This document shows positions 25,239-51,777 of a stretch of DNA of 64,000 nt, in pieces. Location of the stretch: NCBI GenBank assembly GCA_964647665.1, contig CAZYIX010000001.1, positions 115,606 through 179,605 on the forward strand, in the 5' to 3' direction. The DNA is from an uncultured Candidatus Poseidoniales archaeon (GTDB lineage: Archaea; Thermoplasmatota; Poseidoniia; Poseidoniales; Thalassarchaeaceae). Position 1 is the stretch's first letter. Each line of letters begins with the position of its first letter. The notes below the pieces were generated by a model, which saw only the letters and a list, made by a program, of their open reading frames with translations, was not told the origin of the DNA and searched no databases. The position numbers and the translations under genes were made by a program.

Positions 25239-25241
25239 TAG

Positions 25242-33426: not shown

Positions 33427-33531
33427 CCGAGCGTAGCATAGCCTGGCTAATGCACCTGACTGTAGACTGTGAAAACACGGTTGTGGAAGGCAGCCATCAG
33501 GGGATCGCTGGTTCAAATCCGGCCGCTCGGA
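33427..33531 (+). tRNA. tRNA-Tyr (anticodon GUA) with ~30-nt intron at the canonical 37/38 position
   Basis: Read directly. Acceptor CCGAGCG/CGCTCGG. D-arm GCAT-AGCCTGGCTA-ATGC. Anticodon stem CCTGA...TCAGG enclosing CTGTAG + 30 nt + A. T-arm GCTGG-TTCAAAT-CCGGC with discriminator A. The 3' half overlaps the end of the opposite-strand CDS 33497..34003. Confidence 0.55.
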
Positions 33532-35151: not shown

Positions 35152-36333
35152 ATGTTCCCCGATAGTTTGGGTGGTGGCTGCTCACGCGGGCTCCTTCCAA
35201 TTGACGCGAGAGGTGAACCAGTGCTTGAACTCCATGTGCTCGGCACGTCTTCGGCACGTTTCGCTCACGGCCGTGCAGTCTCTGGCTCAGTGTTGTCAAC
35301 TCCGGGCGGCCTCGCTCTAATCGACTGCGGCGAGGGCATGCAGCAGCGCGTTATCGATCATAATCGTGCACTGAAGGCTGCTGGAATTCAAACTCGTACT
35401 CGCCTCTCTCGCGTACGCGCAATACTACTGACGCACGGTCATCTCGACCATTGTTGGGGTGTGCTTCCATTATTGCAAACTCTGGCGTTGGACCGCAGAA
35501 AAGACCCGCTCACCATCATCGGGCCGACCAGCAAAGCAGCACTAAAGTGGGTAGCAGAACATCCTGGTGAATCGCCACCAGAAGGTAGTGGGGTGTATTC
35601 CACTGACCTGGCAATTCAGTGCGCGATGTGGCAGAGCCTTGGCAGCAAGGACGAGGACTTCGGGTATCCGATTGACTGGGTTTTGGTTCCAATCGATGGA
35701 GACGAGCCCTTTGAAGCCCCAGTGCAGCCTCTGGAAGGAGTCACACTGACGATGATTCCTACTCTGCATGGCATACCGTCGTGTGGTTGGCTGGTCGTCG
35801 GTCAAGGCAAATCTGGTCAGTTTGACCGCGACAAAGCGGATTCAGCAAATTTGACCCGAACTGAGAGGAGTCGGCTGGCTGCCGGTGAGGACGTCGAAAA
35901 GGCCGGTGAACTGCTGTTAGCAGCGGAATTTCGTGGACCTCCCCGTTTGGGACGCAGTTTGTTGGTTACAGGTGATACTGCTGCTAGCGTTGCCGGCTTG
36001 CAGCCAGATGCATTGCCAACAACGCCTGATTTGCTAATCCACGAGGCGACTTTCACCGCTGAGAATCAGGAGAAAGCGACGCTGTACAATCATTCGACTG
36101 CAGCTGATGCAGCGCTAGCTGCCACCTCTTGTGGCGCTCGCGCGCTCGGAATGACTCATTTTTCCAGCCGTATAGATAGGCTCAGTCCATCGGTAAGTGA
36201 GGCTCGTGAGCACTTTCGCGGACCAATCTGCGCCTGTTGTGAAGGAGATTGGTTTCACATTGATTCTGAAGGGACCATCACCCACAATGTGCGCTGTGAT
36301 GATGATTGGAACTCCCAGCGATTAGAGACTTGA
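35152..36333 (+). CDS. rnz: Ribonuclease Z / MBL-fold metallo-hydrolase (tRNA 3' processing)
   Basis: LHVLGTSSA...LIDCGEGMQQRV and LLTHGHLDHCWGVLPLL (HxHxDH) match RNase Z motifs I/II. Longer than typical RNase Z (insertions). Confidence 0.7.
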   Translation: MFPDSLGGGCSRGLLPIDARGEPVLELHVLGTSSARFAHGRAVSGSVLSTPGGLALIDCGEGMQQRVIDHNRALKAAGIQTRTRLSRVRAILLTHGHLDHCWGVLPLLQTLALDRRKDPLTIIGPTSKAALKWVAEHPGESPPEGSGVYSTDLAIQCAMWQSLGSKDEDFGYPIDWVLVPIDGDEPFEAPVQPLEGVTLTMIPTLHGIPSCGWLVVGQGKSGQFDRDKADSANLTRTERSRLAAGEDVEKAGELLLAAEFRGPPRLGRSLLVTGDTAASVAGLQPDALPTTPDLLIHEATFTAENQEKATLYNHSTAADAALAATSCGARALGMTHFSSRIDRLSPSVSEAREHFRGPICACCEGDWFHIDSEGTITHNVRCDDDWNSQRLET

Positions 36334-36349: not shown

Positions 36350-38935
36350 ATGGGCGACCTTCAAAGGTGGATTGAGCAAGCCGCGTCCATGCCTCGCGCT
36401 GCGCGTGCCTCAGCACTCGCCGTTGTTCTGTTGTTGTCAATGCTCACAGCATCTGCTATTACGGTGGCTGACACTTCTGCAAGAGCCACCGCTTGTGCAG
36501 AGACAGATGTGGACGAGTTGCCGGGTTTGTTCAACGTTCTCGACCAAGGTTGCCATCAGATTGACCTTGGATATCTGACCCCCGGACAGATTGTGGAATT
36601 CGACATTTCTGCCGATGATTCATTCGATTTTCTAGTTTTCAATTCAAATGCTCTTACAGTCTACACCAACGACCAATCATACCGAGATAATGCATACTGG
36701 GAAGAGGATACTGTATTCGAGTCCTTGAGCGGCAATGCTCGTTGGCATTGGGCAGTCCCCGAAACCTCTGAGATGAGATGGTATGTCATCCTAGACAACC
36801 TCGATCACCCAGGTGATGATGACCAAGGCGACCTCGGAGGCCTCACAGTAGCAATCGATGTCAACATCAGTTTTCCATCGCAAGGAATTTGGGCGGTTCA
36901 CGACAATTTGGTCCGTCTTGGCATTAACGACCACCAACAGTTGCTTGGACCGAGTGTGCTGACTCTCGATGGTGGAACTCAAGTCTCTATTGAGGCCATT
37001 GCCTTGCAAGGCGAGCCTGACCTATTCATACTGACAGCTGCTCAGCGAGACACCTACCTTGCTGGTAATGGTGCACAGTTTCGGGTCAGTGGCGCGGACC
37101 TATTCTCAATCACGGCAGACGGTTCTGTAGCATGGACTGTGCCGTCGGAACACTCCGGTGAAGGTGTGTATCTATTTGCAGACAATGAGGATGGGCCTAC
37201 TGGCGGCGGTGATGGGGATAGCGATGCTGCAGTTACCGTCATGGTGACTTTGTTACCAGTGATTTCAGCGACCATCGATGACGACTTGCAAGGTGACTTG
37301 GATGTTGGAGATGTTGCGACGGTCACCGCGAATAACACCCCCAATTTGTCGCAACAGGTAGACGAGGATGCATACGAATGGGATTTGGACGCTGATGGAG
37401 AGATTGATGCAACCGGCGCATGGGCCGACGTATCTTTCGACACCCCCGGAGACCATGTTGTCACACTGAAGGTCGCTGGGGTGGACGGGCGTACCGACTC
37501 TACCGACCATACGATTTCAGTCAAGGACCAGACCGGACCCACCGCAATCATCAGTGGTAGCGATGACCTTATTCGGGGCTTTGGTGAGACGTTTAGCCTG
37601 TCCAGCAATTCACAGGATAATTGGATGATTGACCGTGAGGAATGGTGGGTGGATGGCTCACTATTCCAGCAGGACAACGGCACCCAGAATACCTTCACTC
37701 ACTCTTTCAGCGTGGGCGGTGCTCATCACATTGAGTTGAAGGTCTACGATGGAGAATCACTGTTTGACAATGACACTGCCATGGTTACTATTCAGGACAC
37801 TACCAGACCAATCGTAGGTTCAATCGAAGGCCCAAGTGAATTGACCGCAGGTGATAGTGGAACATGGAGCCTGCAGGCTAACGATGGAGAATCAGCCACC
37901 CTCTCATGGTCATGGGACTTCGACAAGGATGACGGTGCTAACGATATGGATGCTACTGGCTCTCAGGCAACTTGGACCTTTAGCAAGGCTGGCAATTATT
38001 GGATAACCTGTACGGTGACAAATGAGGAAAACATCTCCACTCCTACTGAAATGTTGGTTGTCGTCAAGGCGGCCCCATCTTCTGGACTTGGAGCCGGCAT
38101 AGATTTCGCCGGGCCAGCTTTCGCATTATTGTTGGTAATCGGCCTCGCTGTCGGCGGATTCTTCGGATGGCGGCGTTGGCGCGATGCACAGGCTCTCAAA
38201 GTATTGGCAAATGAGGAAATAGCTCGGATTACTGCCGAGCAGGAATCCACTCAAGAACCGACGCAGGAGGAGCAGTTGTCTATGTTCGCGCCCGCTGGTT
38301 CCCGTGTCGTTTCCAGTCGTTCGGGTGCAGAGACTGAGATGGCAGAAATCGCCGGTGCTGGCTATGGCGCATCAGAAGCAGTAGAGAGTGCAGCAATGCT
38401 TGGTGTTCAGACTCAGGTGAGTGATGGCGATTCAGAACTTCTCGCCGCCTTCGATGAGCCTGAAATCAAGCCGGAACCCGCAGTAACACCGGTACAGAAG
38501 GCAGCGGCGCAAGAGCCTGCGCCGGTCGCCGAAAAGCCGGCTGCTGGAGGGGCGACCGTTATCTCCAGTGGAATCGAACTCCCATCAGTGATGAAGCAGG
38601 CAGTTGAGACACCCGCTGAAGTTGCAGCGGCGGCACCTGCACCGGCACCAGAACCTGCCGTAGAGCCTGCGCCAGCACCCGCACCGGCACCAGCCGTTGA
38701 GTCCACACAGCCTACTCCCGCACCTGCCCCCACACCAACCGCAGAACCAACACCCGCACCTACTCCCGTTGCAGAACCAACACCCGCACCCGCAGCAGTG
38801 GCAGAGGGTACTATCGAGGTGATTGGCGCATGTGCCTCATGCGGACAGCGATACGCTGTGGATATGCCAAGTTCAATCAATGAGGCCAGAATAGATTGTC
38901 CGAAGTGTGGTTCTCGCAACAATATCCACAGATGA
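36350..38935 (+). CDS. Large surface protein: signal peptide, PKD domains, single TM, cytoplasmic Pro/Ala-rich linker and C-terminal C4 zinc ribbon
   Basis: Signal peptide (ARASALAVVLLLSMLTASA). PKD motifs (YEWDLDADGEID...HVVTLKV; WSWDFDKDDGANDMDATG...YWITCTVTNEEN). TM FALLLVIGLAVGGFFGW + RRWR. PAPAPEPAVEPAPAPAPAP linker. C-terminal CASCGQRY-x17-CPKCGSRN. Confidence 0.7.
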   Translation: MGDLQRWIEQAASMPRAARASALAVVLLLSMLTASAITVADTSARATACAETDVDELPGLFNVLDQGCHQIDLGYLTPGQIVEFDISADDSFDFLVFNSNALTVYTNDQSYRDNAYWEEDTVFESLSGNARWHWAVPETSEMRWYVILDNLDHPGDDDQGDLGGLTVAIDVNISFPSQGIWAVHDNLVRLGINDHQQLLGPSVLTLDGGTQVSIEAIALQGEPDLFILTAAQRDTYLAGNGAQFRVSGADLFSITADGSVAWTVPSEHSGEGVYLFADNEDGPTGGGDGDSDAAVTVMVTLLPVISATIDDDLQGDLDVGDVATVTANNTPNLSQQVDEDAYEWDLDADGEIDATGAWADVSFDTPGDHVVTLKVAGVDGRTDSTDHTISVKDQTGPTAIISGSDDLIRGFGETFSLSSNSQDNWMIDREEWWVDGSLFQQDNGTQNTFTHSFSVGGAHHIELKVYDGESLFDNDTAMVTIQDTTRPIVGSIEGPSELTAGDSGTWSLQANDGESATLSWSWDFDKDDGANDMDATGSQATWTFSKAGNYWITCTVTNEENISTPTEMLVVVKAAPSSGLGAGIDFAGPAFALLLVIGLAVGGFFGWRRWRDAQALKVLANEEIARITAEQESTQEPTQEEQLSMFAPAGSRVVSSRSGAETEMAEIAGAGYGASEAVESAAMLGVQTQVSDGDSELLAAFDEPEIKPEPAVTPVQKAAAQEPAPVAEKPAAGGATVISSGIELPSVMKQAVETPAEVAAAAPAPAPEPAVEPAPAPAPAPAVESTQPTPAPAPTPTAEPTPAPTPVAEPTPAPAAVAEGTIEVIGACASCGQRYAVDMPSSINEARIDCPKCGSRNNIHR
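38741..38800 (+). repeat. 30-nt tandem direct repeat (2 copies) inside the Pro/Ala-rich linker coding region
   Basis: gcagaaccaacacccgcacc occurs at 38741 and 38771 with a 30-nt period (encodes AEPTPAPxxV twice). Confidence 0.5.
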
Positions 38936-38943
38936 TGGCTTTG

Positions 38944-38977
38944 CGAGGCACCTAGGGAACCTAGGTTGCCTCGTGCG
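38944..38977 (+). terminator. Strong stem-loop immediately after the PKD-protein stop (putative transcript 3' end)
   Basis: GCGAGGCACCTAGG-gaa-CCTAGGT(T)GCCTCGTGC near-perfect 14-bp inverted repeat, 9 nt after the stop codon. Confidence 0.4.
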
Positions 38978-39025
38978 CAGGAGTCGAACACCCTTTAGGC
39001 ACATTAGGGGCCATCAAGGGTTGAG

Positions 39026-42000
39026 ATGGGCGAAGCCGCTGCACGAATGGTCCTCGCTGCACCCGAAAGGCGCAGCGTAAACGGGTTGTGGATTGCAGTA
39101 TTGCTCGTCTTGCCATTAATTGCTCCTTTTTCTGCCGCAGAAGCGGCAGATTCGGTCCGAGCCGACGATTTCGGCATCATCGAGGAATTGCATACCGTGC
39201 TGAATCAGCGGGGACAGTTGCTAGACAGTGAACAGGTGCGGCTGATTGCAGAAGGGCAACTCGCTCCAGTAAAGAACGGAGTTCGTCCTGCTGGTTCGTC
39301 CGATGCGCTTGCTAACGTCGACGAAATTTTCACTGGGATTTCGATGAGAGAATCAGTACAGGCAGACCCGATTCATCCTGCTCCGTTCCAGATACTGCTT
39401 GGAGATGAAGACGTTGCACCCGGATGGGTTGACAACGTTTGGGAGACACTCATCAACATCACTGACTACGTGATCTGGGTCCAGTTCCAAACTGAAGATG
39501 ATGGCCCTCGCCACGATTCTTTCACTACTGTGACCTTCTCTGCCTCTTTGTTCAGCCTATTCAGCGGAGACCCAATGATTCATGACGTGGATGTCGATGG
39601 TGATGGTGATGACGATGTTCGTATTGGCATCAGCATCTCTTGGGATCAAAATAATGGGTGGGGGCTATCAGGAGATGAGATTCTTCCGACTCAGTTGTGG
39701 ATAGAGCCAACCATCCAATATCAGGTCGACGTAATCGATGATTCGGACCCGATGTGGGGTGTTATGGAATTCCTGCATGTTTCATTGCTCAAATCATTTG
39801 CATATTCTTCTAACCCCTTTGAACCCGGTGAGTCCTATGTTTGGGTCATCGATTCAAATTTTACAATTCCTCCAACTGATTGGTCGCTAGACATTGGCTT
39901 CGACAGATTCTGGTTTGACCTCGGTGATTCAGCCCAATCGTTCATTCTCGCATTAACGGGAGGCATCTTTGGCGGAATTCCTGATGAGGGCGACATAACC
40001 GTCGCTGCCCTTGCAGCGCCATATACAGTACAGATTGAGAATTGGGGACAGACAAACTGTCCTGATGACTACGATCCAATGGCCGACCACGGCGCCGGGT
40101 CATTGGACCACCGCTGCCGTATTGGAGTCGGATTCGGCTACGCTCACTTTTCCCCACCAGATGGCGGCGATCGCGAATTATGGGAGCTGGCCTACATTGA
40201 GATGGCCCTGCATCCAGTGGTCAATTCAACACGCCTACCCGCTGAGGTAGACGTTACAATCCGTAACGACAACCTGCTCTCAACTGGTCCTAGCGACATT
40301 GGTGAGAAGAGTCTCACCTCCATCGAGTATTACGCAGACCGTCGCTGCGACATGTGGATTCACTTCCATGAGGACCGAAGCAACTACACGGAAAGTGCTG
40401 GTCAAGAATATGGCAATATCACCGAATCTATTGGCTGGCTGCGTGACCTTCCGTCTGGTACACTGACCAATGAAGAAATATCTCGTACTTTCCGTATGCT
40501 CGGCTCAGAAAGCAGCCCGGCGTTGCCGGGGCAGTTGCCGAGTCGACTTTCCTTTATCCTCGGAATCAAAAATTTCACCCGCGACACAACCCCCAATGTC
40601 GATGACCCTACCCTGCCGGTCAACCCCGCACATCCGCCGAATACACTGTTGTTAGTACGCTCAACCCAACCGGTTGGGAGCGTAGACTACGTTTCTTACT
40701 TCCAACGAGAGGGAGTATCTGCAGACCATCGGCTTTTGACGGTACATGTGGAGGATATTCCAACCGGACTTGTGTTATACGGTGATTTCTGGCTCGGTGG
40801 TTCAGATGATGGAGAAGTATCGACGGATACCTCTGACCTCGATTTTTTCTCTAGAATGATTGATTTCACAATTCTTGCGGTAGTCGACATTTTCCTCGAT
40901 GTGTCCAACACAATCAATGGCATTCCTAGTTCAATTGTCGATGTGATTGGTGGAAGTGCCGGTACCAGTGCAGTGGGGATGAGTGTCAATCTTGAGATGT
41001 ATACCTCATTCGAGTCTGACAGAATTCCTATGGCTTTGGGACAGGCGGACATGTCGCTTGGCTCCAGTGTGCATCCGGTGGCTACTGGAGATCACCTACT
41101 GCTCGCCAACAACACCCAATTCAATACCGTGGTGGGTAGGCATGGGCAGACTGAGCCGTTGGTTCCAATTTCAGTTAGTCTGAGCATTTCTGGCCTAAAG
41201 GCTGCTCATCTGGTCGATGATACCGATACTAATGAACAACGAGTTCAGATTACGATGAATGGCGGAGCACCGATGCGGATGCTATTCCTAGAACACGAAG
41301 GTACCGACCTTGCCAATTCTGACTTCCAAATTGTGCGGATATCGAATATGCCATCCAACCTTGCGGTGATATCTACTCCAACCACCATCACTTACAATTC
41401 GGTTGGAATCCCTGAGATTGTTTACTGTGGTAAAGAAGGCAACATCAGACAGGCGGTAGTACTGGAATCGATGCCGGGTGAATTCACCATGACTGTTTCT
41501 GATGACATTTCTTGGGCCTCAGAACAGCCAATTGGGTCCATTACGATGATGATTTCCGATTCAAGCCAGCCACGAACAATGGATGGTGATCACTTCTTAT
41601 TCGCCCGTGATTCGAATTCTGACAGCATTACACTCTCTACCCGGATGACCGGACTTCGTGAAATTGGCTACATCTCTGCTGCTCAACCGGGAATTCCCGG
41701 ACCCGACGGTCGAGGAACTGCATATCTGGTCGGACCGGGTAATCGCACCTTCTCTGCGGTTGTCATCGATGAAGTTGATCATGATTCAGTAGCAGACGGA
41801 TTGAACGCACACGTCTTGCTCGACCCGATGCCAGGCACTGTTTCACTTGAAGTTCCTGAGAGTTCAACAGGATCGAGCATAGATGTGCCTGAATTCACCA
41901 CCGAAGGTGGTTTGGCAGGTGTTGCATTCTTCCTCGGTGGATTCACCGGCTTTGGAGACAGTGTCAATAAGATGCTTGGGGACCTTGTTACCAGCGTAAC

Positions 42001-43372
42001 TGGAGGCAATGGAAGCGATGCTGCAGACCAGTTGTCATTTGGCATGCAACTAGCTGCTGATAGTGCATTTGATCTCGTCGTCGATGCATCCCAGGGCAGT
42101 ATGGGCTTGAATGAGCCAGAATGGGTACATGGCCTATCTATCACCGCAGAGGAAGCACCAGACAATCACACCGGCTTCCATCTTCGCGGTTGGCTGCCAG
42201 AAATGCCACCAGCAATTGACGTGTCCATAGGTTACCAGAACCTCTCTGTCACCGAACAATGGGATGTCAGCGTCAACATGGTAGGGTGGGAGCCAGCGAG
42301 GCCAGAATTCATCCTACAAGTTGACGGTTATCAGGGTCAAGATTTGCATATGACAATGCTTGGATTTGATACCGGAAAACCCACCGATATAAGCATTGAT
42401 ACACAGACAACAATCGACTTCCGCTCAGTCATTCCTCAACTAACTGTAGTTAGCCAATATGAGTTGAGTCAACGGCTCGGTGCTGTGCATGCAACTTACC
42501 TAGACCGTGAGGCTCAAACTCGCTACGAGATGTTGGTACAAAACATTCCCAAACACATTGACATCGCCTCCTCGCTGGGCTCTACCATCTCGATTGGAAT
42601 GTCAGTGCCAGAGGAGGACAGAGCGGCTGGGCTTGCTCTGGATTCGATGATGATCGAGATGACCTCCTTTTCCGAAGGAATGTGGTGGCCTGCTACAGTT
42701 TTCTTGCATGAATTGCCTGGTGAGATGAATCTGACAATGGAATCTTCAGATATTTTCGATATTACCAAGGAACTTTCCTTCCAAGGCATGCCCACGCTTT
42801 CTTATTCATCCAGTGGTGAGGGCATGGATATGTTCATTTCAACAGCTGGGCGAGCGATTAACTCCAAGGGCGACACTCTGCTGATGGCAGAGAATCTAGC
42901 CAGCCATATGAGTATTGAGCCAACCGAAGACTTCGGTCTGAGGGTGCGTAGCAGTGGTGATGGCATTGGCCGACTATACCTGCGCCAGACCGATATGCCG
43001 ATGCAACCGGGAATCCGGTTAGTACAGATGGAAGCTGTCGGTGAAAATCTGAAAAGCGCGACAATTCACTCCTATACACTCGGTGGCGTCTATCCCATCA
43101 TAGAAATCAGTGATGTCAAAGGTGGCCGAATGATTGCTACCGCTCGAGCCGATGTTAACCTCGGGTCGTGGACGTTAGATGGTCGCGCTGTCCTCATTGA
43201 TGCGCAAGCAACCAGTGGTATTCCAACCGGTTCCACAGTTTCGATGAATGGTGTGGCTGCTGACCTTTCCCTGCTCAATGTGCTTGGGTTTGACGGTTCG
43301 AGCACCCACTATTTGCTTCCGGAACCACTAACCAGCGGCCTTGCGACCGGAATCGCAACTTTGTTTTGGTGA
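39026..43372 (+). CDS. Giant secreted protein (1448 aa), no recognisable domain
   Basis: ATG start and N-terminal signal-like segment (GLWIAVLLVLPLIAPFSAAEAADS). Acidic Thr/Ser/Asp-rich composition, uninterrupted 4.3-kb ORF, no catalytic motif recognised. Confidence 0.7.
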   Translation: MGEAAARMVLAAPERRSVNGLWIAVLLVLPLIAPFSAAEAADSVRADDFGIIEELHTVLNQRGQLLDSEQVRLIAEGQLAPVKNGVRPAGSSDALANVDEIFTGISMRESVQADPIHPAPFQILLGDEDVAPGWVDNVWETLINITDYVIWVQFQTEDDGPRHDSFTTVTFSASLFSLFSGDPMIHDVDVDGDGDDDVRIGISISWDQNNGWGLSGDEILPTQLWIEPTIQYQVDVIDDSDPMWGVMEFLHVSLLKSFAYSSNPFEPGESYVWVIDSNFTIPPTDWSLDIGFDRFWFDLGDSAQSFILALTGGIFGGIPDEGDITVAALAAPYTVQIENWGQTNCPDDYDPMADHGAGSLDHRCRIGVGFGYAHFSPPDGGDRELWELAYIEMALHPVVNSTRLPAEVDVTIRNDNLLSTGPSDIGEKSLTSIEYYADRRCDMWIHFHEDRSNYTESAGQEYGNITESIGWLRDLPSGTLTNEEISRTFRMLGSESSPALPGQLPSRLSFILGIKNFTRDTTPNVDDPTLPVNPAHPPNTLLLVRSTQPVGSVDYVSYFQREGVSADHRLLTVHVEDIPTGLVLYGDFWLGGSDDGEVSTDTSDLDFFSRMIDFTILAVVDIFLDVSNTINGIPSSIVDVIGGSAGTSAVGMSVNLEMYTSFESDRIPMALGQADMSLGSSVHPVATGDHLLLANNTQFNTVVGRHGQTEPLVPISVSLSISGLKAAHLVDDTDTNEQRVQITMNGGAPMRMLFLEHEGTDLANSDFQIVRISNMPSNLAVISTPTTITYNSVGIPEIVYCGKEGNIRQAVVLESMPGEFTMTVSDDISWASEQPIGSITMMISDSSQPRTMDGDHFLFARDSNSDSITLSTRMTGLREIGYISAAQPGIPGPDGRGTAYLVGPGNRTFSAVVIDEVDHDSVADGLNAHVLLDPMPGTVSLEVPESSTGSSIDVPEFTTEGGLAGVAFFLGGFTGFGDSVNKMLGDLVTSVTGGNGSDAADQLSFGMQLAADSAFDLVVDASQGSMGLNEPEWVHGLSITAEEAPDNHTGFHLRGWLPEMPPAIDVSIGYQNLSVTEQWDVSVNMVGWEPARPEFILQVDGYQGQDLHMTMLGFDTGKPTDISIDTQTTIDFRSVIPQLTVVSQYELSQRLGAVHATYLDREAQTRYEMLVQNIPKHIDIASSLGSTISIGMSVPEEDRAAGLALDSMMIEMTSFSEGMWWPATVFLHELPGEMNLTMESSDIFDITKELSFQGMPTLSYSSSGEGMDMFISTAGRAINSKGDTLLMAENLASHMSIEPTEDFGLRVRSSGDGIGRLYLRQTDMPMQPGIRLVQMEAVGENLKSATIHSYTLGGVYPIIEISDVKGGRMIATARADVNLGSWTLDGRAVLIDAQATSGIPTGSTVSMNGVAADLSLLNVLGFDGSSTHYLLPEPLTSGLATGIATLFW

Positions 43373-43377
43373 AAATC

Positions 43378-44067
43378 ATGTCTGACGAGGAAGATATTGA
43401 AGGCATGTTCACTTTGGTGGGCTCACCTGATAATCCCGACCTTGAGGAGTCAGATTTGTCCGATAGTCCTACCCTGACCGACCGGGCTGAACAGATTTCT
43501 GAAGAAAAGAAACAGGAGATCACTCACGACGAGGGTTTTACCGCATCAATCGAGGAAATCGAACTCGCTGAGAAGGCTCTAGAGACCGCTAGGTTGGTTG
43601 CCCGGCAGGTCACTCCATTCCGGGTTATTCTCGCTACAGTTTTCATGGCTGCGTTGATGTTCAGCGTCTTCGCCATTGGTTTCTGGGCAGTGCCCAGAGA
43701 TGCGGTTTCAGTCGAGGTGGCTTATCTTCAGGGTGGCCCCGGTCAGGTCGTGCTGCTGCAAGTGCACAACTTGGGTAGCCGAGGTATTGGCAGCGTCAAT
43801 GTTGAGGCTGAGTTCCAAACTCTAGATGGAGAAGTACTGAATTCCACTCGTTTTACGCGTAGTTCCATTCCTGCTCACACCTCTGTTGCTGGTGATGATC
43901 TTGAGATAATGGTCTCAGGAGTTTCTGTTTGGGATGAGTACATCATTGTCGTGAGATTAGAATACGATTACTATGATGGCTCAGTTGAGGAGCAATCGTG
44001 GAGATATCAGGTCGGTGAATGGTCTAGTGAGCATTTCACTTTGAAAGCCGACCGACACTGGTTCTGA
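43378..44067 (+). CDS. Type II (N-in) single-pass membrane protein with CARDB-like ectodomain, coupled to giant gene
   Basis: Acidic cytoplasmic N-terminus, TM (VILATVFMAALMFSVFAIGFWAV), and a ~140-aa C-terminal domain with VHNLGSRGIGSV CARDB-like motif. Start is 5 nt after the upstream stop (track TTG 43366 overlaps it). Confidence 0.5.
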   Translation: MSDEEDIEGMFTLVGSPDNPDLEESDLSDSPTLTDRAEQISEEKKQEITHDEGFTASIEEIELAEKALETARLVARQVTPFRVILATVFMAALMFSVFAIGFWAVPRDAVSVEVAYLQGGPGQVVLLQVHNLGSRGIGSVNVEAEFQTLDGEVLNSTRFTRSSIPAHTSVAGDDLEIMVSGVSVWDEYIIVVRLEYDYYDGSVEEQSWRYQVGEWSSEHFTLKADRHWF

Positions 44068-44116
44068 GCAGTATCATTACGCTGACAGGATGCGATAAGA
44101 TACAAAGCGGACTCAG

Positions 44117-44144
44117 CGGCCCCCTCCCATAGGAGAGGGGGCCG
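44117..44144 (+). promoter_or_regulatory. GC-rich hairpin with CCC-ATA-GG core abutting the subtilisin start codon
   Basis: CGGCCCCCTCCC-ata-GGAGAGGGGGCCG ends 1 nt before ATG 44146. Same core as the hairpins at 1976..1988 and 8224..8236. Confidence 0.35.
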
Positions 44145-44145
44145 A

Positions 44146-47100
44146 ATGAGGAAGTCAATATTGCTGATGACGCTGTCGATTTTGTTGTTGGCTAGCCTAT
44201 CTCCGCTGCTTACTCAGCCAACTGAGTCATACGGTTCTACTGCGATTGATGATGATTCTCGCAGCGTTGAGAGAGTATCAATTCCGGCTGTCGCTGATGC
44301 AATCAGTGATATTGAGCATTCGCAGTTATTACTGGGCGTCGAGATATCTCGCCAATCCAACGCAGACACCCACCTCGGAATGTGGACGACAAGTGGCCTT
44401 TCCTCAAACATGGACATTCCAACGCAACTCCGTTTACCACGTAATGACATCGCCTTGGCCATAGTTGATGGTGACGTAGGATTGTGGGATGCTCGCAGTT
44501 CTCTGTCAGAGGTTTCTGGGCTTGAGGTGCGTGCCCACATCCCCCCATCTGGGTTCTTGCTGCAAGGGTCTGCCCAGTCGCTAGAAGCAGCAAGAGGTGC
44601 TGAAGGTGTGCTGTCAGTCCATGCCGTGCCTTTGGCATTCATGCTCGATAGTGAATTGATTGAGATGTACATCGATGCACAATCAGTTGTCAGTTCTGGC
44701 CTCGCTGAAGGCGGCGAGCCGGTGACCTCGGTCAGGATGCATGGTTGGCGCCTCGCTGAGACAGCAATGCCACTCGACCATCTTTCTCTGTCAGGATACA
44801 ATTTCGACCTCGATGCGAGAGCAGATGAACTGCTCATCGACCATCGCGATATTGACAATGGACGTCACGATGGTCTGCTTCGACTCGTTGACCTACCAGC
44901 CGCGGCAGCCTCTCCATCGCTCTCATGGCTGAGCCTTGAGCCGGTTTGGATGCCACATAACAACGAAGCCTTCGAGAATATCCACGCCGATGACGTGGAG
45001 AATTTCTTTCTCACTGGCCTGAATGGCTCTGGACAACTGGTAGCGGTTGCAGATTCAGGAATAGACCGTGACCATGGCGACTTCGGCCAGCGAATTCAGC
45101 ACGTAGAATCGGTTACTTGGGGCGACTCAAGCACTGAAGATACCCACTCAGGTCATGGAACTCACGTGGCCTGCACGGTTCTCGGTGACGGCTTCAGAGG
45201 AGCATATGCCGGAATAGCTCCACAGGCGGAACTGTGGTTCCAAGCCATGGAAGATGACTCTACTGGTGATTTCAGTGGAGCGAGCATGGACTACATGCTG
45301 CGGACTGCTTACGAAGGCGGGGCTCACATTCACACAAATTCATGGGGCGCTCACCAGAATTACGGTGAATACACCTCTAGCAGTGAGGACGTCGACAGCA
45401 GGACCAGCCAGTATGACCAATACTGGTCCTACGATGGTTTGGTAGTGTTGGCTTCGGCTGGAAATGATGGACCTGATTCTGACACAGTGTCTCCTCCTGC
45501 AACAGCAAAGAATGTCATCGCAGTTGCCAACACTCACAATCGCGGCGGCGGCGCCCCTGACACTCTATCGCAGAGCAGTAGCCGCGGCCCTACCGATGAT
45601 GGCCGCATCAAGCCAGACGTTTCTGCCCCGGGCGCTTGGGTTCGCTCATGTCGTTCACAAGATGCGACAGAAACTTCTGGAGCATCATGGTCTAGTCAGT
45701 GGTATCTGGAATACTCCGGCACTTCGATGGCCGCTCCCAACGCGGCAGGCGCAGCCACCTTGATTCGCGAATACCTGACTGAAGTTGCAGGCCGCCCATC
45801 ACCACAGGGCGCTCTAATCAAGGCGATGTTGATTCTTGGCGCTGAGGATATTGGTAGCAGAAATATCCCGAATAACGACGAAGGATGGGGTCTGATTAAT
45901 TTGGCAAATTCACTGTTGCCCGGCTCAGATACCGGAGTTTGGGTAGCAGACCGTTACTATGTGCGCTCAGGCAATACCGAGGAGTTCCTGTTCAATGTCT
46001 CTCGCAGCAACACACCGTTCAAGGTGGTGCTAGCATGGTCAGATTATCAGGGGAATTCATGGGCCAGCAAGCAGTTGCAGAACGACCTTGATTTGGTGGT
46101 AATTGCCCCCGATGGTACCGAATACTTGGGTAATGACTTCTCGAGCGGTCGTTCGACTACCGGTGGAACTAGAGATTCGACCAATAACGTCGAGGTCACG
46201 TTGGTCGACAATGCAGACATGGGCATTTGGACTGTCCGAGTGACCGATGTCAGTCACGGTGGCCAGCGTAGTGAGCAGTCGTTTGCAGTTGCAGTTCGTG
46301 GCGCAGGAGTCAACGACCTGCGCAGTGACCCCCTACCTCTTGCCGAAACCTTCACCCTCTCAACTGAGATTCCTCAAGTCAACGATGTGACCACAATCTC
46401 CATCCAAATTCAGAATCAAGGTGGTGGTCCTGCCAATGGGTTGCCGGTACAGGCAATAGCAGGCGGTCAGAACCTCGGAGAAGTCACCCTTGAACTCGGC
46501 CCCGGCATGATTCGTTGGGCAACATGGGATTGGACTCCAATTACAGAGGGAGAGCAGGCAATCACCATCCGAGTCGACCCATATGATGTAGTATCTGAAA
46601 TTGATGAAGCCAACAACCTATTCCAGACAACAGTTGCAGTCAGCGCTCCGGGTGTGCGCATTTCGACTGATGAAACCACCAAACGTCTCGTTGACCCATC
46701 GACGACCAGTACGTCTTGGGATTTTGTTCTGAAAAACACTGCTTTACTGCCGACAAACGCCAGTGTTTCAGCGACGAAACCAGTATTCCTCACTACCGGA
46801 CAGGAAATGACTTCCTGGTTCACTTCGTTTAATCTCACTACTTTCCAACTGAACGGTTCTGAGGAGTCGAGAGTCGGTTTCACGCTTGTGCACTCATCTC
46901 CTACTTCGCCCCCGTCTCCTGGATATTACCAATTCACAGTTACAGCGATGGACGTTGACAATAATGTTGCATTCCCTCTAACGTTGACTCTCGATGTACC
47001 AGTACTACCTGACGTCTCATTCCAAATGCCATTCACCACCCTTTCCGTTTCACCGGTTTACCCGACCGAATTCACTGTTGAAATCCTCAACGATGGCAAT

Positions 47101-48816
47101 GGAATGCAGGGCTACAACCTGTATCTAGATGGTCCTGTTGGATGGCGACTGGGCCTCGATGAACTTGGGACTACAGAAGGAGCTTCATCGGGCTCAACCG
47201 GCTCAATCCCGGTCTCGGGAACCAGAGCAGTGGCAATGACCCTGTATCCCCCTGCCTATCCTGCATCAGCAGGGCAATCACTGGTCTCACAGATGCGTGT
47301 AATCAGTCAGATGGACCCTGATTCTCAATGGGTGCTCGAGATTCCAATGGAGGTATCTCTACACGAGCAGATTGAGATGGAAATAGATATCGAGTATGGT
47401 GTACTACGCCCAGATTCAGTTCTTACTCTACAATACTCAATCACTAATATCGGCAACGCAGATATGACTCTGCATCCCGACTTGAATGACAGGCCGGGTG
47501 GCTGGGATGTGACTGCTGGAAGTGGCTCGTTCACAGTGCCTGTTGGAGAATCACGAGCCTACCTGATTAACCTCGAAGGCAATGGATATGCGGTTGGTGG
47601 AGAGATGAATTTCCACTTATCGACAATTAATGGCTACCGTTACACATGGCACGGGTCCATGGAAGTCACCGCACCTCCGCAACCAAGCCTCTCCTTCTGG
47701 TCAGTTAGAATTGGTGATGGAGAGGAAGCCATAGGAGACCCATATGGCGCGGGTGAGCACCCTCCTGGTGCTCCTGGTGTAACATTTTCATGGTTGATCG
47801 GAAATACTGGCAGTGAGCCTTGGACTCCTAGCGTGGATTTGGAACATCCTGTTGGCTTGGATTGGTTCAAGGCGTGCGATATCCCCGGCGAGGTCATTCC
47901 TGACGAATCGGTCATCGTCGCATGTTCGTTATTTATTCCACCTGATACCGTAGCCGGTAGTCAGCCAGAGATTACTTTCACGATGAATATCGATGGCTTG
48001 TTGCTCAGTGATACTCTTACTCTGTATGTTGCAGCAAATCCGATTGTGGTTTGGCGGCCACTTTCACTTGATGAATTCACAGAAGGTAAGCAAGGTGAAG
48101 TTATGCTTTCAATCGAGAATATCGGCAATACGCAGATTTCCGAAATGGTGGTGATTGATGCCCCTGAAGATTGGAAGGCCGAAGTTGATGGTAGCCCCGC
48201 TTTGACTCTGAACATCGGTGAGACTCGAAATGTACGGCTGCTGATTACTCCAGCAGATGTCGGTGAGCACAGCTTGTTAGTCAGCATCGGAGAGGATGGT
48301 GATATCGCAGATGCTGTCCATTCGATAACAGTCAACGTAAATCGCGACGTGAATAGTAACAGCGGTAGTGGTTCTGCCCTAACTGTCGCCGCGTTTATTT
48401 TGTTTGTACTAGTCATTGTAGGAGCGGTGCTTTCCGTGCTTTTGTTTATCCCACGAAAGCAAGAAACTAGTCCCTCGAAAAATATGGCTGCAGCGACCAT
48501 GCCGCCACCATTGAATGCACCAGCAGCACTTGCCACCTCCACCACCTCTACAACCTCCACCACCACCACATCCTCCGCAACCTCCGCAGCACCCGCTACG
48601 GTTGCTTCAGCAGCAGAGAAGAAGCAGGCAACTGCGCCCGCTGTTATTTGCTGGGGTTGCAATAAAAACATCACAGGTCCACGCCGTGCTTGCCCATCTT
48701 GTGGAGCACGGTATCACGCCGAAATCTCAGACTGTGCGGGGGATAAATTGGATGAATGCAAGAACTGTGGTGACAGTGCAGACGAGTTCGTCGATGAGGA
48801 AGGGGAGGGTGATTGA
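44146..48816 (+). CDS. Giant subtilisin-like serine protease (S8) with multiple CARDB-like domains, TM helix, Ser/Thr-rich cytoplasmic linker and C-terminal double zinc ribbon
   Basis: Signal peptide (SILLMTLSILLLASLSPLLT). Catalytic triad motifs VAVADSGIDRDHGDF (Asp), HGTHVACTV (His), GTSMAAPNAAGAATL (Ser). Repeated NxGxxxA CARDB motifs. TM (LTVAAFILFVLVIVGAVLSVLLFIP). TSTTSTTSTTTT linker. CWGCNK-x8-CPSCG...C-x6-CKNCG, then an acidic end. Confidence 0.85.
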   Translation: MRKSILLMTLSILLLASLSPLLTQPTESYGSTAIDDDSRSVERVSIPAVADAISDIEHSQLLLGVEISRQSNADTHLGMWTTSGLSSNMDIPTQLRLPRNDIALAIVDGDVGLWDARSSLSEVSGLEVRAHIPPSGFLLQGSAQSLEAARGAEGVLSVHAVPLAFMLDSELIEMYIDAQSVVSSGLAEGGEPVTSVRMHGWRLAETAMPLDHLSLSGYNFDLDARADELLIDHRDIDNGRHDGLLRLVDLPAAAASPSLSWLSLEPVWMPHNNEAFENIHADDVENFFLTGLNGSGQLVAVADSGIDRDHGDFGQRIQHVESVTWGDSSTEDTHSGHGTHVACTVLGDGFRGAYAGIAPQAELWFQAMEDDSTGDFSGASMDYMLRTAYEGGAHIHTNSWGAHQNYGEYTSSSEDVDSRTSQYDQYWSYDGLVVLASAGNDGPDSDTVSPPATAKNVIAVANTHNRGGGAPDTLSQSSSRGPTDDGRIKPDVSAPGAWVRSCRSQDATETSGASWSSQWYLEYSGTSMAAPNAAGAATLIREYLTEVAGRPSPQGALIKAMLILGAEDIGSRNIPNNDEGWGLINLANSLLPGSDTGVWVADRYYVRSGNTEEFLFNVSRSNTPFKVVLAWSDYQGNSWASKQLQNDLDLVVIAPDGTEYLGNDFSSGRSTTGGTRDSTNNVEVTLVDNADMGIWTVRVTDVSHGGQRSEQSFAVAVRGAGVNDLRSDPLPLAETFTLSTEIPQVNDVTTISIQIQNQGGGPANGLPVQAIAGGQNLGEVTLELGPGMIRWATWDWTPITEGEQAITIRVDPYDVVSEIDEANNLFQTTVAVSAPGVRISTDETTKRLVDPSTTSTSWDFVLKNTALLPTNASVSATKPVFLTTGQEMTSWFTSFNLTTFQLNGSEESRVGFTLVHSSPTSPPSPGYYQFTVTAMDVDNNVAFPLTLTLDVPVLPDVSFQMPFTTLSVSPVYPTEFTVEILNDGNGMQGYNLYLDGPVGWRLGLDELGTTEGASSGSTGSIPVSGTRAVAMTLYPPAYPASAGQSLVSQMRVISQMDPDSQWVLEIPMEVSLHEQIEMEIDIEYGVLRPDSVLTLQYSITNIGNADMTLHPDLNDRPGGWDVTAGSGSFTVPVGESRAYLINLEGNGYAVGGEMNFHLSTINGYRYTWHGSMEVTAPPQPSLSFWSVRIGDGEEAIGDPYGAGEHPPGAPGVTFSWLIGNTGSEPWTPSVDLEHPVGLDWFKACDIPGEVIPDESVIVACSLFIPPDTVAGSQPEITFTMNIDGLLLSDTLTLYVAANPIVVWRPLSLDEFTEGKQGEVMLSIENIGNTQISEMVVIDAPEDWKAEVDGSPALTLNIGETRNVRLLITPADVGEHSLLVSIGEDGDIADAVHSITVNVNRDVNSNSGSGSALTVAAFILFVLVIVGAVLSVLLFIPRKQETSPSKNMAAATMPPPLNAPAALATSTTSTTSTTTTSSATSAAPATVASAAEKKQATAPAVICWGCNKNITGPRRACPSCGARYHAEISDCAGDKLDECKNCGDSADEFVDEEGEGD

Positions 48817-51656
48817 TGGCATATTCTAGTCAACGAGCATCTGCATTCCTGCGCGCAGGCGGCCTTTTGAGTAAAGCGTGGTGTCCGTCTATTATGCGCA
48901 GGCGTACGCGAAGCCGAGCAGTATTACTCTCCGCCTTGCTTCTACTGCTTCTCGCAGCTCCTTTCAGCGCACCTACGGTGGCTGCTGATGGTCGTGATGC
49001 CAGCGTTTCTCTGTACACAGACTCGACTGGCAAGGAGGCTTCACCGGGAACTCCGGCAGAGTATACAATCACCGTGTACAACGATGGCGATGTCGATATC
49101 ACAGTGCAGTTGAGTACTCAGGAGGATGCCGGTGGCTGCCAAGGGTGGTCAAGTTCTATCGAACAGGTACAGAGTCAGCCAATTGCACCAAGTTCATCCG
49201 AGCAGGTTACCTTGACAGTCAATGTTACTGAAGGGGAGCAGACCTCCGATGAGTGCGACACCACCGTGTTAGCGACAGCCAACAACGCTGAACCCGGTTC
49301 ACCGGGACCCCCAGCACAGGCAGATGTTACTGTTACCACCACCAAAACCGAAGGTAGTGGTAATGCAGTATATGGGGTCGAGTTGTCAACTTCTACCGCT
49401 ACCAAAACCTACAACGGCGAAGATACAGTTGAGTGGACAGTCACTGTGAAAAATACCGGTCAAGCGCAGGCTCAAATTTCTATTGATATGACTGATTCAG
49501 CCTCCTGTCGTTCCGATGGGCTCACCGCCAGTGTTGACCCACAGACCATGACACTGCAGAGTGACGAGGACGAGCAAGCAACAGTCAGTGTTCCGGTTCC
49601 AAACGGAGACCAGACCGAGGCGGGCAGCCACTGTTTCATTGTACATGCCACGGTAACCAATGACCCCAATCAGCAGAATCAGGCTCAGGACAACCTCTCT
49701 ATCACACTCAACATTCCCGAATTACATGAATGCGATTCCTCACTCGCTTCAAATAGCATGAGTTTGGACCCGGGTGAATCGGCCTCAAACTCGTTCAACC
49801 TCGATAATACAGGCAATAGTGACTGGACTGTTACATTCGGGACTAACGGCCAAAAGGCATCTTGGGTCGACTCATCAACAAGTAGTAGGCTGCTTCCATA
49901 CAACAATGGTAACGGAGCAACATCATTCACATTCTCAGTAACTGCTGATGATAGTTTGCCGGCGAATGAACAGACTATCATCAAAATACAAGCCCTCGAT
50001 GGCAATAGCCTGCGTTGTGAATCGACTCTGACAGTAGTCGTAGGCCAATCTCACGGTGCTACTGCCAGCCTGTCTAGTCAGACGCTGTCAAGGGTTGACC
50101 CCGGCTCCTCTGATTCAACCTCATTGACGATTACCAATACAGGCAATGGGGCAGAGACCTACAGTGTCGGCACCTTTGGCTCACCCGCCGGATGGGGAGT
50201 CAGTGTTGAGGAGAGTTCGGTTACCTTGCAGGGTAAACATTCGCCACAGAATGAGCGACAGACATCGATGTATGTCAGCGTCTACGTTCCTGAAGACGCT
50301 TTGGCAGATGAGGAAGTAACAGTCACCATCACAATTAGTGATAGCAGCGGTGGAACCACCTATGCGACGGTTGAACTCAGCGTCACAGTGGCAGAGCGTC
50401 ATGAGATGTCAACCACGGTGCTTTCCGTCGACCAAACTGGGCGCAGCGACTCGATTATTCAGTTCCCGTTCACAGTTGATAACACAGGTAACGTACAGGA
50501 TTCGTTCCGCCTCCGTGCCTGTGACCCCAGTCAGCCCAGCGGTTGTATCTCTCCACCTTGGCCGACTCGCTTCGTCGATGGCACCGGACAAGAAATTCAG
50601 AATTTGGTGATTGGTTCTGGAGAATCTGACACCGCTTACCTTGAGGTCAGTGTTCCGAGTGAAAATGAAGCGGGTGAGGGCGACTACCTTCAGGTGAACA
50701 TCAAGGTCACAATCGTCGATGCACCTTCAGTGGATCATCAGCAGATGGTGACTGCACGTGTATCGAATTACGAATACATGATGCAACTTGTTCTCGCCAA
50801 CCCACAGGGTGCTCCTGACGCTACCAGCGCGGTATTACCTCCAGGTGGCTCGGTTACATTCTCCATGTTGGTCAGTGATGTAGGTACTTCACCTTACATC
50901 GAGAACGCGTTGTTCACTTCAAATGGCATGGAATCAACCATCTCACGTGATCTTGAGATTGAAGGAATGACATACCAATTCTCGGGTCTGCCTTTCGAAG
51001 TCTCCGATGACAGCATGGTCTACCAAGTGAATATCACTCTAGCTGTTCTTGAGGGAGTTGCAAACGGTGCCGATGGCATCGTACACATTTGTGCCTCATC
51101 GATGCGAAACACCGCGAGCCCCTCGTGTGTGAGTATCTCAATGACTGTACAAACACTGCATCAACTCAGTGTGGATGTTGAGGGTGGGCCAATACACAAT
51201 ACGACCCACCCCGCCTTCGCTGATTACATCGTAATCATCAGCAACGATGGCAATGTGGATGAGACTGTCGTAATCACTACTACCGATGGACTGCGCGGCT
51301 GGACAATCGACCTCAACGAGACCGAAGTCGACATCGCTGCAGGTGAGGAAGCCTCGGTTCGCGTTCGTGTGAAGCCACCTCACGAAATGTCTGTGGATGA
51401 CAGTTTTGAGTTCACTTTGACAGTCGCTCCTAAGGACGAACCAGTTGCATCCCAACCAATCGACTTGACGGTGAATGCCGAGATGGATAACAGTCTGTTT
51501 GGCTTGACTAATTCTGTAATTGACATCATTTCTTACGTCATTCTTGCAGTCATAGGTATTCTGATCATTATCACCCTTCTTAACAATCGTCGTCGAAGCG
51601 AGATTTGGTCCGACGAAGAGGAATTAGAAGAAGATGAGGAATTCGACGAAGACTGA
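48816..51656 (+). CDS. Large surface protein of tandem CARDB-like (NxGN) domains with C-terminal TM anchor and acidic cytoplasmic tail
   Basis: Signal peptide after a basic RRRTRSR N-region. At least 7 repeats of the VxNxGN motif (YNDGDVD, KNTGQAQA, DNTGNSDW, TNTGNGAE, DNTGNVQD, SDVGTSPY, SNDGNVDE). TM (VIDIISYVILAVIGILIIITLL) then EEELEEDEEFDED tail. Start ATG overlaps the upstream stop (TGATG); track TTG 48813. Confidence 0.7.
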   Translation: MAYSSQRASAFLRAGGLLSKAWCPSIMRRRTRSRAVLLSALLLLLLAAPFSAPTVAADGRDASVSLYTDSTGKEASPGTPAEYTITVYNDGDVDITVQLSTQEDAGGCQGWSSSIEQVQSQPIAPSSSEQVTLTVNVTEGEQTSDECDTTVLATANNAEPGSPGPPAQADVTVTTTKTEGSGNAVYGVELSTSTATKTYNGEDTVEWTVTVKNTGQAQAQISIDMTDSASCRSDGLTASVDPQTMTLQSDEDEQATVSVPVPNGDQTEAGSHCFIVHATVTNDPNQQNQAQDNLSITLNIPELHECDSSLASNSMSLDPGESASNSFNLDNTGNSDWTVTFGTNGQKASWVDSSTSSRLLPYNNGNGATSFTFSVTADDSLPANEQTIIKIQALDGNSLRCESTLTVVVGQSHGATASLSSQTLSRVDPGSSDSTSLTITNTGNGAETYSVGTFGSPAGWGVSVEESSVTLQGKHSPQNERQTSMYVSVYVPEDALADEEVTVTITISDSSGGTTYATVELSVTVAERHEMSTTVLSVDQTGRSDSIIQFPFTVDNTGNVQDSFRLRACDPSQPSGCISPPWPTRFVDGTGQEIQNLVIGSGESDTAYLEVSVPSENEAGEGDYLQVNIKVTIVDAPSVDHQQMVTARVSNYEYMMQLVLANPQGAPDATSAVLPPGGSVTFSMLVSDVGTSPYIENALFTSNGMESTISRDLEIEGMTYQFSGLPFEVSDDSMVYQVNITLAVLEGVANGADGIVHICASSMRNTASPSCVSISMTVQTLHQLSVDVEGGPIHNTTHPAFADYIVIISNDGNVDETVVITTTDGLRGWTIDLNETEVDIAAGEEASVRVRVKPPHEMSVDDSFEFTLTVAPKDEPVASQPIDLTVNAEMDNSLFGLTNSVIDIISYVILAVIGILIIITLLNNRRRSEIWSDEEELEEDEEFDED

Positions 51657-51758: not shown

Positions 51759-51777
51759 GGAACCCTGTAAGGGTTCC
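51759..51777 (+). promoter_or_regulatory. Perfect-arm palindrome GGAACCCT-gta-AGGGTTCC in the nuoA leader
   Basis: Inverted repeat read directly, 14 nt upstream of the nuoA ATG. Related GGAAC...GTTCC palindrome at 23019..23044. Confidence 0.35.

Follow-up and report, generated by a model that had tools for sequence, protein, structure and literature searches.

In the surface ocean, no planktonic archaea are more abundant than those of Marine Group II (MGII), and to our knowledge no member of the group has been cultured. Their cell envelope, and the way in which they attack dissolved and particulate protein, have so far been inferred only from lists of gene families. The stretch analyzed here, 64,000 nucleotides (nt) of a contig from an uncultured Candidatus Poseidoniales archaeon of the Thalassarchaeaceae (CAZYIX010000001.1, positions 115,606 to 179,605; hereafter the window), raises the question in a concrete form. 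It carries five consecutive genes for predicted surface proteins, which we call p1 to p5, and a first look at the letters alone (the sequence-only reading) had taken them for an island encoding a dedicated degradative and adhesive module of the cell surface. Are these genes an acquired island or a fixed part of the genome, and what could their products form together? The five open reading frames (ORFs) were found on the forward strand exactly at the coordinates and with the sizes listed then, and their flanks are the RNase-Z-like gene and the nuo operon, as had been proposed:

35152-36333: metallo-beta-lactamase/RNase-Z-like gene (Pfam), upstream flank of p1
36350-38935, + strand: p1, 861 amino acids (aa)
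39026-43372, + strand: p2, 1448 aa
43366-44067, + strand: p3 as the longest ORF, 233 aa
44146-48816, + strand: p4, 1556 aa
48813-51656, + strand: p5 as the longest ORF, 947 aa, from TTG 48813
51791: start of nuoA, downstream flank of p5, followed by the remainder of the nuo operon

The answer that we prefer, and hold to be probable, is that p1 to p5 are a vertically inherited cell-envelope cluster conserved throughout the order Poseidoniales, in which a scaffold-and-anchor core (p2 and p3) is accompanied by a surface protease and by membrane proteins with immunoglobulin-like (Ig-like) repeats. When one genome was scanned for each GTDB species, 202 genomes proved to encode a relative of p2, the best match being 95% identical and belonging to a Thalassarchaeaceae metagenome-assembled genome (MAG). 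All window proteins were then compared by tblastn with the best 80 loci of the 202 and with three additional loci. The order and strand p1-p2-p3-p4-p5-nuoA-nuoB were kept in every one of these loci whose contig spans the region, and the surrounding L15e, PRC, RNase-Z-like and nuo region is likewise syntenic. Identity to the window protein ranged over 30-46% for p1, 41-58% for p2, 34-60% for p3, 38-65% for p4, 35-56% for p5 and 77-91% for nuoB, with p2 equaling or exceeding the RNase-Z-like gene across loci.

At locus L089 (loci from relatives are given L numbers throughout), the cluster holds a more divergent type of p2, which is 1554-1574 aa long and 33% identical; its relatives bear the names Poseidonia sp. 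or Poseidoniaceae, so that MGIIa also carries the cluster. The only break seen among the loci examined is at L086, a high-GC lineage (0.68) with a 3.0-Mb contig, which keeps the cluster with an insertion of four genes between p1 and p2. The inserted genes (7353-9861) are small, and among them are a HAD-like gene and, on the opposite strand, a gene for a 411-aa protein without known function. A synteny comparison in relatives had been proposed earlier as a check of variability, and it found a constant order across MGIIb, MGIIa and the high-GC lineage.

Against the relative with 95% identity, the ratio of nonsynonymous to synonymous substitution rates (dN/dS) was 0.116 in p1, 0.055 in p2 and 0.06 in the RNase-Z-like gene; purifying selection on p2 is thus as strong as in this neighboring gene. 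The segment at 39-44 kb had been said to be more AT-rich than its neighbors, and a dip is indeed present but small. The GC content is 0.515 in the cluster, ∼2 points below the 0.536 found elsewhere in the window (Mann-Whitney p = 5e-4), and 0.503 at 39-44 kb. GC content at the third codon position (GC3) is ∼0.50 in the cluster genes and equals that of the RNase-Z-like gene, so that the shift lies in the first and second positions (GC1 and GC2), i.e., in amino-acid content. The tetranucleotide correlation over 40-52 kb is also slightly lower (r of 0.77-0.85 versus 0.87-0.93). The lower GC and the tetranucleotide signal speak for a horizontally acquired or strain-variable island, as the sequence-only reading had implied, but the cluster is universal in presence and position across Poseidoniales, its dN/dS is as low as that of a housekeeping gene, and GC3 does not take part in the shift. 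Searches for mobility genes, PADLOC defense systems and PHROGs phage families returned nothing except a generic subtilase. Among the neighboring genes we noticed neither an integrase nor, with no dedicated repeat search run, a flanking repeat, and the tRNAs of the window, at 13.2 and 33.4 kb, are away from the cluster borders, the nearest lying ∼3 kb upstream. With the order fixed in all spanning loci, a small compositional shift and low dN/dS, we regard an acquired or variable island as highly improbable.

Topology was assigned by a hydropathy scan of p1 to p5, which predicts all five products to be exported or membrane-anchored. Export signals at the N-terminus, claimed earlier for all five, were predicted for p1, p2, p4 and p5; p3 is the exception, with an internal signal-anchor helix. 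In p2 the only hydrophobic segment detected is the signal region at aa 20-38, and there is no internal transmembrane (TM) helix. The hydrophobic core of the signal is preceded in p2 (39026-39140) and its orthologs by a conserved R-[LV]-[IL]-x-x-A-P-R-x-R, which is unusual for a plain Sec signal. The protein is acidic and hydrophilic (D+E 13.8%, K+R 4.8%) and contains four conserved N-x-S/T sequons, of which N464 and N516 are 100% conserved, and it is probably N-glycosylated. One further element is conserved at its end:

43307-43369, + strand: p2 aa 1428-1448, C-terminal peptide H-Y-[IL]-L-P-E-P followed by an ∼14-aa hydrophobic tail

In the window protein this end reads ...HYLLPEPLTSGLATGIATLFW, with a hydrophobic stretch of ∼14 aa and zero basic residues, and in MGIIb p2 proteins it takes the form H-x-[LIM]-x-[PA]-E-P and continues for ∼14 residues, most of them small or hydrophobic, again with no basic tail. 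It does not have the tripartite makeup of archaeosortase/exosortase signals (PGF-, PEF- and PEP-CTERM), and the NCBIfam sorting-signal models gave no match to p2 even at an E value of 10.

The sequence-only reading had called p2 an orphan. It belongs instead to a length-conserved family with more than 175 full-length relatives (1435-1480 aa, 42-95% identity), all from Marine Group II/Thalassarchaeaceae MAGs, and with distant relatives across Thermoplasmata. Neither p2 nor p3 has any match in Pfam, NCBIfam, PADLOC or PHROGs, and the sequence profile of the p2 family found nothing in the PDB below an E value of 0.4. We modeled the two halves of p2 separately with AlphaFold2, using alignments of 56 sequences each, and obtained a predicted local distance difference test score (pLDDT) of 80.1 and a predicted template modeling score (pTM) of 0.79 for aa 40-760 and values of 78.3 and 0.72 for aa 741-1448. 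In both halves, antiparallel strands of 10-14 residues follow one another and make up most of the model (a beta-meander), with two long helices, candidates for coiled coils, at aa ∼607-642 and ∼963-992. The models have no convincing fold match in the PDB, and their resemblances to solved folds appear to reflect a generic beta-meander likeness rather than fold membership. An outer-membrane beta-barrel was rejected for want of a closed transmembrane barrel with strong structural similarity. The self-comparison with hhalign gave only a weak match between 670-797 and 835-956 (E value of 0.001, probability of 21%), and p2 does not qualify as a clear repeat protein. The p2 family is therefore an uncharacterized one whose predicted fold is unmatched.

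The alignment of orthologs places the start of p3 most likely at ATG 43378, which gives a protein of 229 aa (43378-44067, + strand). As this start lies 5 nt past the p2 stop, the p2/p3 junction is truly tight, as had been claimed. The predicted protein begins with a conserved acidic cytoplasmic region of ∼82 aa, followed by one TM helix (nt 43624-43680); the ectodomain beyond the helix is ∼125 aa long, begins with VPRDAV and holds one CARDB-like module with an NxG motif. By this topology p3 is predicted to be a type II membrane protein, and it therefore stands outside the rule of N-terminal export signals.

How far this pair reaches became apparent from an exhaustive profile search, in which p2 aa 290-1448 was compared with 1.84 billion cluster representatives. 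The search gave 247 matches, some of them full-length relatives that are 1240-1836 aa long and scored 70-250 bits, and distant relatives with ∼20% identity were found in other Thermoplasmata MAGs. One of the relatives, P0288, is collinear with p2 at ∼20-22% identity and retains the C-terminal HYILPEP. Six distant genomic contexts were examined (L084, L085, L087, L088, L090 and L091), and in all six a small ORF for a p3-like membrane protein lies directly 3' of the p2-like gene, the two overlapping by up to 7 nt or standing up to 37 nt apart. This ORF matched the hidden Markov model (HMM) of p3 at E values of 1e-8 to 1e-12 in the five contexts tested (5/5), and the distant p3-like proteins share a layout in which a TM helix is followed by [IV]PR[TVA]E and one NxG module. 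The source names of the distant group include "Thermoplasmata archaeon," while one subgroup is labeled "Candidatus Poseidoniales archaeon"; searching a word-indexed database with a profile of the distant relatives gave only 10 matches, which limits the taxonomic resolution of this group. The shared sequence features indicate that p2-p3 is an ancient pair, older than the five-gene cluster and spread across Thermoplasmata.

Two of the distant contexts, L084 (10001-15798) and L091 (10001-15861), come from contigs labeled Candidatus Poseidoniales archaeon. Here the p2-like gene (1782-1806 aa) and its p3-like partner are divergent from an FtsZ-SecE-Spt5-L11 block, and the pair is either a paralog beside the main cluster or the mark of a separate lineage. 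The FtsZ next to these p2-like genes is only 41% identical to the FtsZ of the window (32098-33270), which sits ∼6 kb upstream, and for this reason we took the association of FtsZ with p2 as coincidence or paralogy. In L091 a shorter S8 gene is present ∼7 kb downstream of the p2-like gene.

The remaining three proteins are predicted to share a type I membrane topology, with a large ectodomain between a signal region and a single TM helix. The PKD, S8 and CARDB modules that had been recognized by eye were recovered above gathering scores when the window proteins were searched with Pfam and NCBIfam HMMs. The features of p4, p1 and p5, all on the + strand, are as follows:

p4 aa 5-23: signal region (hydropathy scan)
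p4 to aa ∼290: putative pro-region
p4 aa 294-582, nt 45025-45891: S8 catalytic domain, Pfam PF00082, 150.2 bits versus a cutoff of 21.8
p4 aa 740-827, nt 46363-46626: CARDB, Pfam PF07705, 63.8 bits versus a cutoff of 22.7
p4 aa 1312-1370: NPCBM_assoc/NEW3 (Pfam)
p4 aa 1417-1435, nt 48394-48450: TM helix
p4 between TM helix and zinc finger: Ser/Thr-rich linker
p4 aa ∼1501-1543, nt 48646-48774: Cys-rich zinc finger, cytoplasmic
p1 aa 22-40: signal region (hydropathy scan)
p1 aa ∼45-295: N-terminal ectodomain with no assigned family and invariant C49/C68
p1 aa 486-567, nt 37805-38050: Pfam PKD_4, within about three PKD-like Ig domains
p1 aa 586-604, nt 38105-38161: TM helix
p1 between TM helix and zinc ribbon: Ala/Pro-rich cytoplasmic linker of ∼250 aa
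p1 aa 828-856, nt 38831-38917: C-terminal zinc ribbon, CxxC...CPxCG
p5 nt 51525-51581: TM helix, followed by a short acidic cytoplasmic tail

The catalytic machinery of p4 appears complete. The triad D303/H337/S527, in the order Asp-His-Ser, and the oxyanion residue N398 are 100% conserved in 64 orthologs. The nearest solved relatives are KP-43 and SubHal, to which aa 279-701 align at an E value of 1e-70; the alignment with 1wmd_A (E value of 8.5e-70) covers chain residues 17-418 of 434 and includes the C-terminal beta domain of KP-43. After this homology ends at aa ∼701, about five CARDB-like modules make up a stalk. The tail is dimorphic, with the Cys-rich finger present in 47 of 66 orthologs and a YPGWLWD...W[IV]PDP motif in its place in the others (e.g., L046, L067, L072 and L078). 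To judge from these residues and domains, p4 is a membrane-tethered, KP-43-like subtilase with an intact predicted active site on a CARDB-like stalk. In L002 (15012-19501) the subtilase gene is split into ORFs of 546 and 915 aa, in comparison with the near-identical long-read assembly L001 (15012-19499); the split probably stems from a frameshift or from faulty assembly and is not biological.

The PKD_4 match of p1 scored 51.9 bits over a Pfam cutoff of 27, the PKD model matched as well, and PKD was found in 16/16 orthologs tested. The zinc ribbon is kept in 65 of 66 orthologs, even though the Pfam match to it is weak, and the N332 sequon is 100% conserved among orthologs.

For p5, the most likely start is ATG 48894, a Met common to all orthologs that is followed by a classical signal peptide, and the protein is then 920 aa long (48894-51656, + strand). 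With the start moved to this conserved codon, the TGATG overlap of p4 and p5 (48814-48818), which had been listed with the tight junctions, is probably an artifact of taking the longest ORF, and the gap between the two genes is probably ∼77 nt. The protein is made up of seven tandem CARDB-like Ig modules. It matched the choice-of-anchor T family of NCBIfam at 97.6 bits over a cutoff of 70, and further matches in Pfam and NCBIfam were to FixG_C, NPCBM_assoc/NEW3 and DUF7507. The many CARDB-like repeats seen by the sequence-only reading hold as a periodic motif: a regular expression for [VIL]xNxG matches p3 once, the p4 stalk five times and p5 seven times, at a spacing of ∼110-130 aa in p4 and p5, with a sixth p4 match inside the S8 domain. 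As a family assignment they hold in one place, since the CARDB model of Pfam matches once only, in p4; p5 and p3 gave no match to it and show related Ig-like families or the NxG motif.

Two of the spacers in the cluster contain strong predicted hairpins:

38936-38986, + strand: RNA hairpin in the p1-p2 spacer; the 90-nt spacer has a minimum free energy of -38.7 kcal/mol, z = -3.4
44117-44144, + strand: GC-rich hairpin GGCCCCCTC...GAGGGGGCC upstream of p4, ending 2 nt before its ATG

Hairpins recur in the p1-p2 spacer, with 41 of 69 orthologous loci at -15 kcal/mol or lower versus 22 of 149 background segments. The p4 hairpin (-25.5 kcal/mol, z = -5.0) is the strongest upstream hairpin among 42 window genes. 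Its 3' arm holds a Shine-Dalgarno-like GGAGAGGGGG and its 5' arm the complement, and L005, L030 and L021 are similar. The same arrangement is seen at 25205-25240, before the SNF transporter gene (25242), with a Shine-Dalgarno-like GGAGGAGG in the 3' arm and a complementary 5' arm, and a further strong hairpin lies at 51759-51777, just upstream of a start codon. These positions suggest that the start-proximal hairpins sequester Shine-Dalgarno sequences or are transcript-end structures.

Taken together, an order-wide envelope cluster could work as follows. The ancestral pair would consist of p2, a secreted, acidic, all-beta protein of ∼1450 aa, and p3, its small type II membrane partner. p3 would hold p2 at the cell surface, perhaps through the C-terminal HY[IL]LPEP peptide, and p2 would form a large surface scaffold or coat. 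In Poseidoniales, the type I membrane proteins p1, p4 and p5 would have joined this pair: p4 as an active KP-43-like subtilase displayed off the membrane on about five Ig-like modules, p5 as a stalk of seven such modules, and p1 with an unassigned head domain and three PKD domains. The cytoplasmic zinc-ribbon tails of p1 and p4 could connect this outer layer with a cytoplasmic partner, and the five proteins together may make up a proteolytic, adhesive layer that digests high-molecular-weight protein at the cell surface. The dedicated module proposed at the outset thus keeps its surface location, its protease and its PKD/CARDB-like character but loses the island. What the analysis shows is the order of the genes, their conservation and domain content, the predicted topology, the intact active site, purifying selection and the pairing of p2 with p3; that the five proteins associate physically, that p3 anchors p2, what the substrates are and that the genes are co-transcribed we infer.

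Several observations weigh against this picture. The intergenic gaps of 78-134 nt hold strong hairpins that could split transcripts or translation units. p2 has no detectable similarity to any characterized surface-layer protein or adhesin. In the cluster genes, GC3 (∼0.50) falls below the values of L15e and the nuo genes (0.51-0.61), so that, for what this weak evidence is worth, there is no sign of the codon bias of an abundant coat protein, and the subtilase named in MGII transcript studies may be a gene other than p4. None of the six distant contexts outside the main cluster has p1, p4, p5 or nuo alongside p2-p3, and the five-gene association could therefore be synteny without joint function. 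Followed to its end, the last point would leave five independent surface proteins that are adjacent only through slow rearrangement in a streamlined lineage. The synteny of the whole surrounding region (L15e, PRC, RNase-Z-like and nuo) would fit this, as would the toleration of a four-gene insertion between p1 and p2 in the L086 lineage. Yet order and strand are kept across both families although protein identity drops to 29-43% at L089, p2 and p3 are tightly coupled, the CARDB-like module type is common to p3, p4 and p5, and p1 and p4 share an unusual cytoplasmic zinc-ribbon tail. We consider independence of the five rather improbable.

A different division of labor would make p2-p3 a surface layer (S-layer) or a noncrystalline exterior protein layer of Poseidoniales and other Thermoplasmata, by analogy with SlaA/SlaB of Sulfolobales, with p2 as the canopy and p3 as the membrane stalk; p4 would then be mainly a maturation or turnover protease and p1 and p5 accessory envelope proteins. 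Such a layer would agree with a large secreted, beta-rich, acidic protein beside a small membrane-anchored partner in strictly conserved pairing, with constraint along the whole length of p2, as expected for contacts in a lattice or complex, with the conserved sequons of p2 and with the fact that no multicopy locus was seen among the loci examined. It would also provide for the exterior protein layer, ∼20 nm thick, of Thermoplasmatales that lack an S-layer, which is still without an assigned protein (PMC12448462). On the other hand, no similarity of sequence or fold was found between p2 and the S-layer proteins characterized from archaea, among them SlaA and Haloferax csg, and GC3 and codon usage are unremarkable. 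The TM helix of p3 is also N-terminal, whereas that of SlaB is C-terminal. We treat this possibility as tentative, and the same goes for a bolder extension that joins it to the cluster as a whole. There, p2-p3 might be the main envelope component (an S-layer canopy plus anchor or an exterior protein layer) of MGII and of related wall-less or S-layer-bearing Thermoplasmata, with a novel beta-meander fold and HY[IL]LPEP as a new attachment signal, while p1, p4 and p5 might make a protein-digesting surface organelle wired to the cytoplasm by zinc-ribbon tails; this, too, we would call possible but doubtful. Envelope types differ within Thermoplasmata: Picrophilus and Aciduliprofundum bear an S-layer, and Thermoplasma, Ferroplasma, Cuniculiplasma and Oxyplasma either lack one or show the exterior protein layer.

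Farther 5' of the RNase-Z-like gene, the window carries genes for L15e, FtsZ, HisRS, a GtrA-like protein, an NAD(P)HX repair enzyme, an SNF symporter and an M14 carboxypeptidase. The last two lie at 23097-26969 (+ strand), 10 kb 5' of the cluster and syntenic in L001, with the M14 zinc carboxypeptidase (713 aa) directly followed by the SNF-family sodium symporter, and look like a pair for extracellular peptidase action and amino-acid uptake. At 33427-33531 (+ strand) Rfam identifies a 105-nt tRNA (51.3 bits) that ARAGORN missed, probably an intron-containing archaeal tRNA.

The literature on MGII offers points of contact. In the passages of the MGII genomics papers located by keyword, all MGII MAGs are said to encode an extracellular S8 subtilisin (PMC6864105), most MGII genomes to have a sedolisin-like (S8/S53) peptidase (PMC6336850), and "subtilase" appears among the highly transcribed MGII genes (PMC9723583). 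p4 is very probably one of the reported core S8 peptidases of MGII (PMC6864105, PMC6336850 and PMC9723583). The same passages list peptidase families and adhesion genes and do not describe the cluster, the p2-p3 pair or the tethered architecture. As far as they go, a conserved envelope cluster with a surface protease fits the proteolytic lifestyle proposed for MGII, the reported universality of extracellular S8 peptidases (PMC6864105 and PMC6336850) and the high transcription of a subtilase (PMC9723583). A surface module present throughout the order, always in the same position and strongly constrained, offers concrete targets for metaproteomics, for identification of the cell coat and for the study of tethered subtilases. 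The p2-p3 family is likewise a candidate for the unassigned exterior protein layer on Thermoplasmatales.

Among known systems, the closest to p4 are KP-43 and SubHal (MEROPS S8A; PDB 1WMD and 5FAX), which it resembles in the catalytic domain, in the beta domain after it and in having both the triad and the oxyanion Asn. It differs in its length of 1556 aa, in ∼five extra CARDB-like modules, in its TM anchor and in its cytoplasmic zinc finger, and whereas KP-43 and SubHal are secreted Bacillus enzymes, p4 is archaeal and predicted to be membrane-tethered. In SlaA and SlaB of the Sulfolobales, a beta-rich secreted protein of ∼1400 aa is encoded beside a smaller membrane-anchored partner, and the membrane anchor of SlaB is a C-terminal TM helix. 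The likeness of p2-p3 to them is an analogy of gene-pair layout only, with no similarity of sequence or fold detected; p3 is much smaller (150-240 aa) and N-terminally anchored. Staphylothermus marinus carries a subtilisin-type protease, STABLE, on a giant archaeal surface scaffold, tetrabrachion. p2 and p4 may be compared with this system in concept, although p2 is not homologous to tetrabrachion and p4 has its own membrane anchor. With the choice-of-anchor T/CARDB/NEW3 Ig-like surface repeat proteins, p5 is linked by its score above the cutoff, and the modules of p3, p4 and p5 share the NxG motif; p5 has no sortase-type signal and is instead anchored by an ordinary TM helix at its C-terminus, followed by an acidic tail. 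The subtilase, the PKD domains and the CARDB-like repeats are thus of known kinds, and what is new is the five-gene architecture fixed across the order, together with the zinc-ribbon tails and with p2-p3 as an ancient pair that has an unmatched predicted fold and a new conserved C-terminal peptide.

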